Virus record (IMG/VR): IMGVR_UViG_3300032328_000544
Coordinates: 1 to 58,942 of that record
DNA: 58,942 nucleotides
Source: a virus
Taxonomy: Duplodnaviria > Caudoviricetes
Direction: 5' to 3' (one strand)
This document shows positions 3,665 through 28,775 of this stretch, piece by piece. Every line of letters begins with the position of its first letter. Position 1 is the stretch's first letter. The notes under the pieces are model-generated. The model searched no databases. It worked only from the letters and a program-made list of their open reading frames with translations, and was not told the origin of the DNA. Position numbers and translations under genes: made by a program.

Positions 3665-4150
3665 TTACGCCGCTACCGGGGTAACGACTTCACCAAAACC
3701 AAAAGTCTCACGCGAACGCATGATTCTGCGATAAAGGTCGTTGGGGGTTTTGTTCGACTTGATTGATTCCAAGTCCTTGAATGAGACCTCGACAAAAATT
3801 GGGTTCTTGTAAAGGCCGTACCCACGAGAAACCAATTGACCAGAGTAGGTCTTGAAGATAGAGGATTGCTCCCGAATCAGATTGGCGAGTATCTCAGGGT
3901 TCTCGTACGATTCGAAGTTGCCATCTGCACTACGAGTCGCGCTCGACTTGTTGCCAGAGTAGAAACTCCAGTTTCGTCGAGGGTGGAAACTACTAATTCG
4001 TCGCATAAGCACATATGGCTTGTGAGGTTCCTCGCCAGCCAAACGCCCAATTAGCGCAGGGGTGAGGATGAATTGGTAGGTGTATTCGTTTTTACGGAAT
4101 TCAAGGTACAGGGCTTTGCCAGCCGCGTCCTTTTCATTTTTTTCACTCAT
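3665..4150 (-). CDS. hypothetical protein
   Basis: 161-aa ORF with a GGAAGGA RBS upstream. Confidence 0.7.
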   Translation of the reverse strand: MSEKNEKDAAGKALYLEFRKNEYTYQFILTPALIGRLAGEEPHKPYVLMRRISSFHPRRNWSFYSGNKSSATRSADGNFESYENPEILANLIREQSSIFKTYSGQLVSRGYGLYKNPIFVEVSFKDLESIKSNKTPNDLYRRIMRSRETFGFGEVVTPVAA

Positions 4151-15620: not shown

Positions 15621-15932
15621 CTATTTGAGGTAGTCTGCGAAGTCTAGTTCTAGTGCGGGTTTGGGTTTTGCGCCTGTTACGCGTTTTACTATTTCTCCGT
15701 CAACATAGACCATTAACGTCGGGACTGACGTGATGTTGTGTTTTTCCATAAATTCTGGGTTTGCGTCGGCGTCGAGTTTGTAGATTTCTATTCGTTCGGA
15801 GAGGTCTTCCATGATTGGTTTGAGTGCGCGACACGGACCGCACCATTCTGCCCAGACGTACACAATGCTTGCGTTTTTGTTTTCAAGGACGTCTGCCTGA
15901 ATTGTTAGGTCTGTTGTTTCTTTGGTTGTCAT
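15621..15932 (-). CDS. trxA: thioredoxin
   Basis: WAEWCGPC, SVPTL, GAKPK. Confidence 0.92.
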   Translation of the reverse strand: MTTKETTDLTIQADVLENKNASIVYVWAEWCGPCRALKPIMEDLSERIEIYKLDADANPEFMEKHNITSVPTLMVYVDGEIVKRVTGAKPKPALELDFADYLK

Positions 15933-18063: not shown

Positions 18064-18087
18064 TATTGCCTAAGTTTAACATACAAG

Positions 18088-18160
18088 CCCCCCCGGAGGG
18101 ATTCGAACCCCCGACCTTACGGGTAGAAACCGTCTGCGCTATCCGCTGCGCCACGGGGGG
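18088..18160 (-). tRNA. tRNA-Arg(TCT)
   Basis: Acceptor CCCCCCG/CGGGGGG, D stem GCGC/GCGC, anticodon loop TTTCTAC, T loop TTCGAAT; CCA not encoded. Confidence 0.9.
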
Positions 18161-25396: not shown

Positions 25397-25655
25397 TCTT
25401 ACTTTTTTCTGTAGACGTTTTGTATGAGTTCTTGAACTAGACCGACAAAAATAAACAGACCGACAGCAACGATTATGGCAATGACGCCATATCCAAATAG
25501 TAATGCCGCAAAATAAATCATTACCCAAGGCATACCGTCCACGATTTCTCCAATCGATTAGTTAGATGGACTTCTTCTACGCTCTTTATAGCACAGGGGG
25601 CAGTAACTCCCCCTGAACCATATGCGGTGCTTCCTACACGGATACCCGTATTTTC

Positions 25656-25979
25656 TCACGCCGCTTCTTCTTTCTTGTCTCTCTGCTTTTGTTTGTACTC
25701 GACAGCCAAGTTTTCGACGGTCTTATTCTTATAGTGTACCGTCTTTACTCTATCGGGTCTAAAACTTCTCCACGTCTCTCCGCCTTTGGTGCCACCCCAA
25801 ACGTCGACCCACTCGGCTTCACCAGTTTTTACGTGTTTGATAAATCGGAAGCGTCCCCGCTCACCAGAAATCTTTAGTTCTGTTCCAGGAGAAACGTTTC
25901 GTCCGTTGATTTGGATTTCAGTAGTGACTACCCAAGCGTCATCTAAACGTGGGGTGTTTATTTTATTCTTTCTCACCAT
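25656..25979 (-). CDS. hypothetical protein
   Basis: GTELKISGERGRFRF..EWVDVWGG; leaderless start at 25979. Confidence 0.7.
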   Translation of the reverse strand: MVRKNKINTPRLDDAWVVTTEIQINGRNVSPGTELKISGERGRFRFIKHVKTGEAEWVDVWGGTKGGETWRSFRPDRVKTVHYKNKTVENLAVEYKQKQRDKKEEAA

Positions 25980-26013
25980 GAAAAGTAAGATAGCATATAT
26001 TTTTGAATAGTAT

Positions 26014-26064
26014 AAAGAACCGCCCCCCACATTTCATTTGAATACGTGAGGGGCGGAGTCTTTT
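26014..26064 (-). terminator. hairpin/terminator after the nrdB micro-ORFs
   Basis: CCGCCCC/GGGGCGG stem flanked by A/T runs. Confidence 0.55.
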
Positions 26065-26070
26065 ATTCTA

Positions 26071-26148
26071 CTACTGGCATGAGTCGCACTGAAGCAGGTC
26101 CATTGGGTCCATTGGCACCGAGTAGCCGTCTACCTTATCGTTATCCAT
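26071..26148 (-). CDS. 25-aa peptide resembling an NrdA C-terminal CxxC redox tail
   Basis: MDNDKVDGYSVPMDPMDLLQCDSCQ, double TAG stop, A-rich leader with GAAAG, inside the nrdB unit. Confidence 0.7.
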   Translation of the reverse strand: MDNDKVDGYSVPMDPMDLLQCDSCQ

Positions 26149-26181
26149 GTTTTGTTTCGCTTTCTTTGTTTGTTTCTAGAC

Positions 26182-26229
26182 TTATTTTTTTCTGCAACAT
26201 TCGCCGTTACAGTCGTCGCAACCGCGCAT
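26182..26229 (-). CDS. 15-aa four-Cys micro-ORF
   Basis: MRGCDDCNGECCRKK; TAATG overlap with the nrdB stop. Confidence 0.4.
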   Translation of the reverse strand: MRGCDDCNGECCRKK

Positions 26230-27206
26230 TAGTTTTTCCCGTTCACTTCATAAGACGTGTTGGTTGACTCAAAGAAGTTGACCAACTGCAAGGTGTCATT
26301 AGCCGTAGCCATCCACTTTGCGGGGTTGCTGACGTTGTAGTGGGGGGCGAAGCCAAGTTCCTCAAGACGACGGTCAGCCATGTACTTCGTGTACGTGCTG
26401 ATGTACTCGTGGTTGAGTCCAAGGATTCCGTTGGGAAGCATAGCCTTGTTGTATTCAACTTCCATGTCCACAGCGTCAAGAATCATTTGCTTGACTTCAG
26501 CGACAAACTCGTCGGTGACAATCTCAGGGTTCTCTTCAAGAATGGTCAGGATGAGGTTGATTCCGAACTTGAGGTGGAGCGACTCGTCGCGAACAATCCA
26601 GTCCACGAGCGAACCGAAGTTACGCAGAAGATTGCGCTGACGGAACGACAGGGCGACCATAAAGCCCGTGTAGAACCAGATACCTTCCATGATTACCGAA
26701 TAAGCAATCAGGTTACGCAGGAAGTCCTGCTTTCCTTCAACCGTAGTAATGTCGAGACGCTCGTCAGACATACGCTTGATGTACTTAACTTCAAATGCTT
26801 CCTTGTTGGCGATTGCTGGGTGCTCGACGTGCTGAGCATAAATGGTGTCGCGGTCAACGGGGAACGTCTCAAGGACGTACTCGAACGACATGCAGTGGTT
26901 CGCTTCTTCCCACATCTGCTTCGCAAGGTAGAGATGCGTCTCCGCTGCGTTCAGGTACGGGTAGACGCCAAACGCCAGTGCCTTGTTGACAATCAGTTCC
27001 GAGGGGTTGAAGAACGACATGAGAAACGTAATTGCGTGCTGCTCTTCGTCCGTCATTTTTTTGAAGTCGGCAATGTCTTCACCCAACTGAATCTCGTTGG
27101 GGAACCAAGTATTGGCTACTGCTTGGTTATAAAGGTCCATCGCCCACTGATATCGGATTGGTTTGAGAAGCAATCCGTCTTGAATTCCCGTTCCTAGAAT
27201 TGGCAT
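26229..27206 (-). CDS. nrdB: ribonucleotide reductase beta subunit, class Ic-like (R2c)
   Basis: E70, E101-x-x-H104, F108 at the radical-Tyr position, MEGIWFY, RDESLH, C-terminal NFFE..Y. Confidence 0.92.
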   Translation of the reverse strand: MPILGTGIQDGLLLKPIRYQWAMDLYNQAVANTWFPNEIQLGEDIADFKKMTDEEQHAITFLMSFFNPSELIVNKALAFGVYPYLNAAETHLYLAKQMWEEANHCMSFEYVLETFPVDRDTIYAQHVEHPAIANKEAFEVKYIKRMSDERLDITTVEGKQDFLRNLIAYSVIMEGIWFYTGFMVALSFRQRNLLRNFGSLVDWIVRDESLHLKFGINLILTILEENPEIVTDEFVAEVKQMILDAVDMEVEYNKAMLPNGILGLNHEYISTYTKYMADRRLEELGFAPHYNVSNPAKWMATANDTLQLVNFFESTNTSYEVNGKN

Positions 27207-27307
27207 AGTTTTAGTAGTCTTTCTCTCTTGATAGTGGCTTGAAAATTGGTTGGATTTCTAGTGTACCCGAAGTTGTAAACCCCAAGTTTGGCGTTACAAT
27301 GGTGGTT

Positions 27308-27970: not shown

Positions 27971-28039
27971 GTGTGTAGTTTGGGTGTCTTGGAGACCCAC
28001 TCCCTCAGAGGCTGGGGCGTCCACGCCTACACTACGCCG

Positions 28040-28112
28040 AGCGAATGCTTGGGATTTGAACCCAGACCTCTGACTTGGAAAGCCAGTGTTCTACCTAATG
28101 AACTTCATCCGC
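28040..28112 (-). tRNA. tRNA-Gly(TCC)
   Basis: Acceptor GCGGATG/CATTCGC, U73, D stem GTTC/GAAC, loop TTTCCAA; the T arm carries one extra nucleotide. Confidence 0.8.
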
Positions 28113-28421: not shown

Positions 28422-28422
28422 G

Positions 28423-28775
28423 TGGACGTGGCGAGATTCGAACTCGCGTCCAACCACATTTCCACTGTTCTTCTACACGCTTAGGTAGTTTGTTTTGTAT
28501 GTTCGGTGATTGACCTACCAGACACCGATTCAGACTCAATTTAAATATGTCGGCTTGAGCCATTAGCCGTACTGCTTTGGTGTCCTATTTATCTGAAACC
28601 CGACTGCCCACTTAGGACTAGTGCTTTGTCGGGGGCTACTGACTACTTATTACTAAGCAGCGAGAGCGAATGCGGAACGAGTCTTAGCATTTATTTTTGT
28701 TGACGGGTTCAAGAGATACCGTCATCTCTGCGTGCTTCACCAGATTTAATGTGACTGTCGATACCAGTCACGCCC
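28423..28775 (-). ncRNA. ssrA: tmRNA (tag AKTRSAFALAA)
   Basis: Acceptor GGGCGTG/CACGTCC-A with G3-U70, 5' TCGAC, GGAC-GCGAG-TTCGAAT-CTCGC T arm, tag ORF 28688-28653 ending LAA; 353 nt. Confidence 0.95.

Follow-up and report, generated by a model that had tools for sequence, protein, structure and literature searches.

A free-standing micropeptide homologous to the C-terminal redox tail of class I ribonucleotide reductase in phages and Microbacteriaceae

The window analysed here is the whole of IMG/VR virus record IMGVR_UViG_3300032328_000544, 58,942 bases of a Caudoviricetes genome, estimated to be 44% complete. At 26071-26148, on the minus strand, it contains an open reading frame (ORF) of 25 codons whose product ends in a CxxCQ motif. 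We consider it highly probable that this ORF encodes the C-terminal redox tail of the alpha subunit of a class I (Ic-type) ribonucleotide reductase (RNR) as a separate, diffusible 25-residue peptide. The evidence consists of homology to tails that are fused to the catalytic chain, partner enzymes that have no tail of their own, linkage to RNR genes, a shared operator, co-occurrence across genomes and purifying selection. The peptide family is host-derived and not peculiar to the window phage.

The relay of electrons through a C-terminal CxxC tail is a textbook feature of class I RNR. As described in excerpts of two published accounts, CXXC is the class I consensus and the tail is almost always part of the alpha chain (PMC9669993); there it re-reduces the active-site disulfide and is itself reduced by thioredoxin or glutaredoxin (PMC4078304, PMC9669993). 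A profile built from the peptide was run against a sample of 301 genomes of the class Actinomycetes. Free-standing copies are present only in G002 and G261, the latter recurring in the family sample described below. In eight other genomes, what the profile matches is the end of a long open frame (909-988 codons). These frames are NrdA orthologues: they contain the same TTYYLH...RRGFGA region, continue through a low-complexity linker and then run in frame into the tail, ending in ...ACP[VI]DPQERLQCESCQ-stop or ACPVDPADRAACESCQ (in short, ...ACPVDPQERLQCESCQ-stop). When the free peptides and the fused tails are aligned, seven positions do not vary: P, D, P, C, S, C and the terminal Q. Because the fused orthologues end in the same module, the free peptide is, judged by this alignment, a detached homologue of the NrdA C-terminal tail. 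Two weak matches from the class search (G153 and G082, E 2-3e-3, in open frames of 212 and 327 aa) showed no tail motif on translation.

In the host genomes, the catalytic chain that accompanies the free peptide lacks tail cysteines. We examined the peptide in five hosts, each of which has one gene for the RNR large subunit (PF02867). In all five, NrdA reaches ...TTYYLHMKPRHTAEQSTVKVNK... and then a Gly/Ala/Pro-rich stretch with [RK][RK]GFG motifs, with no cysteine past the YY motif. The Aurantimicrobium NrdA has four cysteines in total, at positions 227, 305, 441 and 456, three of which sit in motifs that we take to be those of the class I active-site cysteines. The absence extends to all 120 closest NrdA homologues in a collection of 5.8 billion proteins, with Aurantimicrobium, Alpinimonas, Naasia, Microcella, Frigoribacterium and Clavibacter among their sources, whose tails of 60-87 residues contain no cysteine after the YY motif. 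The gene order in 5/5 host genomes is nrdA, a paralogous peptide gene, nrdB. The peptide of this operon reads ...Y-x-VPVDPMD[ED/L]LQC[DE]SCQ, and in four of the five hosts the final base of the nrdA stop also serves as the first base of its ATG.

The NrdA tails themselves, whether split or fused, contain one or two [RK][RK]GFG[FGA] motifs each (loci L165-L169 and L180-L189 and the viral contig L083), with nearly invariant G-F-G columns. These motifs could be where the tail, the reductant or NrdB docks.

The free peptide and the tail-less NrdA occur together. In a sample of 151 genomes of the family, 72 have peptide matches, and a comparison of the two tables places this NrdA type (72-100% identity) in exactly the same 72. 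Another 77 genomes have only NrdA matches of ~30-35% identity, in open frames of ~715-880 codons, which we take to be another RNR subclass; two genomes have none. Among the matches listed, nrdA is followed by the peptide within ~450 nt on the same strand in at least 58 of the 72 genomes. Nine peptide matches fall inside open frames of at least 800 codons; since their coordinates put them in a frame other than that of nrdA, these are split as well. The 72 peptide-bearing genomes contain two to five copies each, mostly two or three.

The first-pass annotation of the window, made from its letters, had proposed that the tail is encoded as a separate peptide serving a tail-less NrdA. Comparative genomics supports this proposal: the cognate NrdA lacks tail cysteines in the five hosts, in the 120 closest homologues and in the phage enzyme of L083, and the peptide is kept beside homologous RNR genes in the host operons, in the family sample and in L083.

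The distribution of the host copies was surveyed by scanning one genome per prokaryotic species with a pattern and tblastn. This confirmed 329 of 334 matching stretches, nearly all from Microbacteriaceae by their record titles, and the best 80 loci were kept. A few of these adjoin the RNR large subunit directly, on the 3' side of nrdA. Most lie ahead of hadA/hadB-like dehydratase genes and murB, or between M23 peptidase and NUDIX genes. Third and further copies (for example MDDIETVGGYTIPLDPMDQLQCDSCQ, G002:C1:489263-489340) are at places other than nrdA and the operator-bearing locus.

The stand-alone host copies share promoter elements with nrdA. Their promoter contains, in order, CACTACATGTAGTG, GAATGACA-N4-TGTCATTC and TTATATAGTG, and the outer elements recur at the nrdA genes. 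The pattern CACNANATNTNGNG-N18-28-TATATRGT is found exactly twice per genome in four of the five hosts (1.8-3.9 Mb), once ahead of nrdA and once ahead of the stand-alone peptide, the nrdA sites matching it one base shorter than the peptide sites; a reversed-pattern control gave no matches. The fifth genome has no match to the pattern, and its sole located peptide copy adjoins the 3' end of nrdA. An excerpt of PMC13584703 describes the NrdR box as a pair of 16-bp boxes with conserved C4, A6, A8, T9, T11 and G13, usually separated by a linker of 15-16 bp. A two-box site scoring at least 10 of these 12 positions is present in 72 of the 80 host loci, the maximum in shuffled sequence being 9. Five of the eight low-scoring loci have the peptide directly after nrdA (L092, L120, L137, L139, L146). 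NrdR is encoded in 5/5 host genomes. The extra host copy thus looks, from its upstream sequence, as if it lies behind a duplicate of the nrdA operator that resembles an NrdR site. Among the viral copies, no locus reaches 10 of the 12 positions (maximum 9 over 85 loci; 7 in the window).

Two further features of these promoters were observed. The GAATGACA-N4-TGTCATTC element is a perfect inverted repeat between the two boxes, ~60-100 nt upstream of the stand-alone peptide (L085-L164). It overlaps a -35-like TGACA, is kept in the peptide promoters and is absent from the nrdA promoters, and may be the site of a second regulator. The other three low-scoring host loci (L113, L125 and L134) have different contexts and may be prophage-borne.

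Is the window ORF a gene at all? It might be a chance frame or the decayed, untranslated 3' remnant of an nrdA. It is very short and has no clear Shine-Dalgarno sequence, and Pfam, PHROGs and NCBIfam contain no model for it (the only matches are below threshold: DUF5816, E 0.062, 14 bits where 26.9 is required). We therefore turn to its relatives. In viral contigs, the scan yielded 254 matching stretches and confirmed 247, of which the best 80 loci were kept, and a translated search of cultured phages found four (Pontimonas phage phiPsal1, Clavibacter phages CMP1 and CN1A and Pseudanabaena phage Pan2; six records). The ORF ends in ...C-x-x-C-Q-stop in 84/84 phage loci and 80/80 bacterial loci, and the frame, the start and the exact position of the stop are kept in all 164. 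The 70 distinct DNA versions differ mainly at third codon positions, where the minor-allele fraction is 0.42, compared with 0.13 at first and 0.07 at second positions; all three stop codons are in use, the invariant Ser is written with all six codons (AGY and TCN), and invariant Pro and Leu residues with all of theirs. Because variation is concentrated at the third position and Ser is drawn from both codon families, this is the pattern expected if the peptide is translated and strong purifying selection acts on it. When its profile was searched against 1.84 billion representative proteins, 395 clusters were returned at E <= 0.001. In the best 150 of these, the proteins are 25-151 residues long and the match reaches the last residue in nearly all; eight exceptions (P0004, P0053, P0054, P0066, P0115, P0123, P0135 and P0145) have the motif off the very end or lack the terminal Q, and may be gene-calling artefacts. 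These sequence comparisons confirm the window ORF as a real gene, far beyond chance, and contradict a chance frame or remnant, which we regard as scarcely credible.

Other kinds of short peptide were considered and rejected. A Pup-like modifier would end in GGQ, and this peptide ends in CQ and is carried by a cyanophage too. A RiPP precursor does not fit, as no conserved maturase lies nearby, and neither does CaaX-type lipidation, as the cysteines are at -2 and -5, not -4. The cyanophage variant, in Pseudanabaena phage Pan2 (L003, 3995-4075), has a third cysteine as in the fused tails (MDDFDTIDGFACPNDPADLVSCESCQ); the Pan2 record annotates another, overlapping frame at this place (Pan2_27, 3999-4082 of the locus). 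By its sequence, this variant implies that the tail module would serve outside Actinobacteria too.

The peptide gene of the window stands in the following setting, listed in the direction of transcription and ending with the distant thioredoxin gene.

27206 to 26229 (26229..27206), minus strand: nrdB, the RNR small subunit, class Ic (R2c) type (PF00268, E 5.9e-74)
26149..26228, minus strand: spacer between nrdB and the peptide gene, 80 nt, A-rich; best NrdR two-box score 7/12, at background level
26071..26148, minus strand: micropeptide gene, 25 aa and TAG (MDNDKVDGYSVPMDPMDLLQCDSCQ), probable free-standing homologue of the C-terminal CxxC tail of class I RNR alpha
26068..26070, minus strand: second in-frame TAG, read from the sequence, which makes a double stop
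26014..26063, minus strand: hairpin, then UUCUUUAU (U-rich); -30.6 kcal/mol, z -7.5, an equally good fold in 0/200 shuffles
15621..15932, minus strand: thioredoxin (PF00085, E 1.3e-21; phrog_22)

The ORF starts with ATG, is in a frame different from that of nrdB, and encodes a peptide with seven acidic residues in 25 and QCDSCQ at its C-terminus. Several statements of the first-pass annotation hold here: the short acidic CxxCQ ORF with a double stop lies between nrdB and a hairpin, the phage has a thioredoxin gene at 15621-15932, and no nrdA is present, as PF02867 has no match in the whole 58,942-base record. The double stop is present in part of the relatives only. No NrdR-type boxes were found in the spacer. 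The hairpin is likely to be an intrinsic terminator closing the nrdB-peptide transcript; it was missed by a consensus promoter and terminator scan, which is limited to loops of 3-8 nt and to a maximum of 20 counted pairs.

NrdB of the window has Phe at the position of the radical tyrosine (EEANHCMSF aligned to EEAVHTHTF). Its closest solved relatives are 1syy, 4d8f and 2ani, which we take to be the Chlamydia trachomatis protein. Its sequence identity is 80% with the NrdB encoded on the Aurantimicrobium minutum chromosome and 90% with an NrdB fragment on the viral contig L083.

A Cys-rich mini-ORF of 15 codons (MRGCDDCNGECCRKK; 26182-26229, minus strand) lies mostly inside the spacer. Its ATG overlaps the final base of the nrdB stop codon (TAATG), which is the geometry of the nrdA-peptide junction in the hosts.

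Several observations weigh against reading the peptide as a detached electron-relaying tail. The 72 genomes in which peptide and NrdA co-occur form one clade and are not independent events. A search of the peptide profile against all sequences of solved structures gave one irrelevant match (E 2.2, to the N-terminal part) and no RNR chain, and the tails of other RNR subclasses have no recognisable sequence similarity to the peptide. The fused tails carry a third cysteine (ACP) where most free peptides have Val, and because of this difference the chemistry of the free and fused tails may not be the same. At the host operator, the boxes are 17 bp apart in 64 of the 72 loci, with a 16-bp linker in six and a 15-bp linker in two; as the usual linker is 15-16 bp, binding of NrdR at the stand-alone promoter is not assured. 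In the window, the leader of the peptide gene is A-rich (aaagaaagcgaaacaaaac) and the start lies 80 nt past the nrdB stop. Finally, the complex predicted for a host NrdA and a host peptide of 32 residues scored 0.43, the best of three controls scoring 0.03, with contact agreement of at least 65% and partner pLDDT of at least 54 in the runs. In the benchmark, 58 of 80 solved complexes reached the score mark, as did two of 110 mismatched pairs; at scores of 0.60 or below, it was reached by seven of the 80 solved complexes and by both passing mismatches. As the prediction was made with our own alignments, these benchmark counts apply only roughly. The prediction is thus a weak pass in which no contacts were returned, and as a model it lends weak backing to the pairing of NrdA with the peptide.

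The genomic position of the phage copies counts on the same side. The peptide gene adjoins RNR genes in the window and in L083, and these are the only two such cases in 81 viral loci. In 58 of the 80 loci from the scan, the gene lies between terminase and portal, just 3' of the large terminase gene, from whose stop codon it is separated by 6-7 nt in 41 cases; portal and protease-capsid genes follow it in 57 of the 58. In nine loci, it is preceded by holin-type genes. Neither PF02867 nor PF00268 was found in five of five complete (100%) peptide-bearing phages of 16-17 kb, and PF02867 is absent from two further peptide-bearing genomes, 93% and 95% complete. Because most viral loci are away from RNR genes, it is homology alone that points to the role in phages.

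These contexts first suggested that the peptide is unrelated to RNR, an idea overturned by the host genomes. In a narrower form, the phage copies would be decoys, or general thiol- or metal-binding micropeptides acting, for example, in virion assembly or lysis timing, and would resemble the tail through their origin only. Such a role would suit the positions beside terminase and holin-type genes and the complete small phages that lack RNR genes. Yet strong purifying selection acts on the phage peptides, which have lost none of the invariant residues of the host module, both cysteines and the terminal Gln among them, and the two larger phages have the gene beside RNR genes. Ends of operons and gaps between genes are, moreover, typical places for small acquired genes, so position is no guide to function. 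We consider this alternative very unlikely.

The contig L083 (95 kb) has the order peptide, nrdA, nrdB and shares two further gene clusters with the window. Its NrdA ends in ...RKGFGFKSAN and has no tail cysteines. The nrdA gene (L083:4164-7523) contains an intein-like insertion of ~290 residues exactly at the catalytic-cysteine motif (SSNLC | ... | CTEITLP).

Based on these observations, we suggest the following scheme for the free peptide as the redox tail of NrdA. In one clade of Microbacteriaceae, nrdA would have been split within its flexible linker, leaving an NrdA that ends without cysteines and a detached tail module (...D-G-Y-x-V-P-x-D-P-M-D-L-L-Q-C-D-S-C-Q-COOH) made from its own tiny gene, which usually starts at the final base of the nrdA stop. 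The host would then have gained further copies, one of them behind the duplicated nrdA operator, and phages of these hosts would later have captured the peptide gene. The reduced peptide would dock on NrdA, and its CxxC dithiol would reduce the active-site disulfide after each turnover. The oxidised peptide would be recycled by thioredoxin or a glutaredoxin-like protein; for the window phage, the likely reductant would be its own thioredoxin, in a role and a link that are both presumed. Because the phage copies have no NrdR-type operator, they could supply the tail during infection regardless of host repression, and their frequent coupling to highly expressed late genes would provide more of this co-substrate. 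The window peptide would support the host alpha subunit along with the phage NrdB and thioredoxin; where a 16-17 kb phage has no RNR genes of its own, the only target of its peptide would be the host enzyme. What we infer from sequence in this scheme is that the peptide is translated in vivo, binds to alpha, takes part in disulfide exchange and benefits the phage.

Membership of the RNR system does not by itself fix the chemistry. Linkage, co-occurrence and the shared operator show that the peptide belongs to the RNR system, and they would hold equally if it shuttled no electrons and were instead a sensor of dosage, a regulator or inhibitor sitting in the tail-docking site, or a factor helping the R2c-type NrdB with its metal (Mn/Fe) or its assembly, with which phages would tune or block the host enzyme. 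The two to five copies per host would suit a regulator, the window copy follows nrdB and not nrdA, and cysteine pairs are able to bind metals; it is only within this alternative that the idea of a half zinc ribbon or other metal-binding peptide survives. Against it, the module is homologous to the CxxC tail of fused NrdA and placed exactly as that tail is, and the partners of the free peptide have lost precisely this element. Since the partner NrdA has no other spare cysteines, enzymes without the peptide would miss an essential function. We consider a role without electron transfer unlikely.

A broader proposal goes beyond the identity of the peptide. In this clade of Microbacteriaceae, a diffusible micropeptide would perform the re-reduction of RNR, with its dosage set apart from that of the enzyme through the extra, NrdR-controlled copy, and phages would exploit this arrangement: a 75-base, repressor-free gene would suffice to raise dNTP synthesis in the host, and would be the smallest auxiliary metabolic gene (AMG) known, present in complete 16-17 kb phages that have no other gene of nucleotide metabolism. 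This proposal could equally well prove right or wrong.

How does the free peptide compare with known systems? It resembles the alpha tail of class I enzymes in that it is homologous to the last ~22 residues of orthologous Actinomycetes NrdA, is acidic and has a Cys pair two residues from the C-terminus, and its job is presumed to be the same. It differs in being untethered and encoded by a gene of its own, in having two to five host copies, one with an NrdR-type operator, and in being carried by phages that have no RNR gene. In architecture, the nearest precedent is the split class II enzyme NrdJa/NrdJb, in which, as an excerpt of PMC9669993 describes it, a catalytic chain without C-terminal cysteines is joined by a second chain with the redox region. 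That enzyme is B12-dependent, NrdJb has predicted folded domains (IscU-like, zinc finger), and the same excerpt mentions neither stand-alone copies in phages nor extra copies under separate regulation (PMC9669993). The free peptide is not a member of the NrdJb family: it is paired with a class I alpha that has the YY motif and with a beta of the R2c type, and it is too short for a folded domain. The two systems are analogous and not one family.

Redox helpers that are genetically tied to RNR are also known among NrdH, glutaredoxin and thioredoxin, including the glutaredoxin-NrdB fusion of Facklamia ignava described in an excerpt of PMC6187632. These proteins have a thioredoxin fold, are 75-110 residues long and act as reductants of the tail, whereas the peptide is the tail itself; it gave no match to thioredoxin or glutaredoxin models, and at 25 residues it does not fit a thioredoxin fold with an N-terminal CxxC active site. 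The two are joined in one library protein, P0104, the sole example in which the tail module is attached to a glutaredoxin domain (PF00462, 25 bits; cut-off 22.9). Its glutaredoxin domain contains GHPD, and no cysteine precedes the tail module; GHPD presumably occupies the position of the redox CxxC of NrdH-type glutaredoxins.

Yeast Sml1 is another small protein that acts on the RNR large subunit, where it competes with the C-terminal tail; unlike the peptide, it is a eukaryotic inhibitor of ~100 residues with no CxxC shuttle function. The RNR and thioredoxin genes carried by phages as AMGs are likewise host-derived and serve dNTP supply. The peptide gene, with 75 coding bases, is far below the size of any RNR gene and stands alone in complete 16-17 kb phages; it may be the smallest phage AMG. 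In the literature searched, no class I enzyme with its tail as a separate micropeptide is described, though supplementary tables of tails might list tail-less sequences; nor is a separately regulated extra tail copy or carriage by a phage, an absence that is not thereby proven.

The peptide would be a natural case of an RNR tail that is separate, separately regulated and horizontally mobile. As such, it would offer a clean system for the least understood step of RNR turnover, in which a disordered tail must reach both the active site and the reductant. It would also explain NrdA sequences that seem defective for want of tail cysteines. The gene is an unannotated, essential-looking micro-gene in hundreds of genomes and is probably essential, and it would add a member to the RNR (likely NrdR) regulon. 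Control of nucleotide supply by a 25-residue phage peptide would represent a class of genes missed by standard annotation and by AMG surveys.

The remaining neighbourhood of the window was also inspected. A DNA similarity search of 25600-27300 against a phage collection gave no match. Past the peptide terminator lies a DUF7246 gene (25656-26030, minus strand, E 2.3e-26; phrog_1338), and the next ORF after it encodes a hydrophobic protein of 47 residues (25399-25542, minus strand). The window has tRNA-Gly(tcc) at 28039-28112 and tRNA-Arg(tct) at 18087-18160, both on the minus strand, and ARAGORN predicts a tmRNA gene at 28422-28775 (minus strand) with the tag peptide AKTRSAFALAA.

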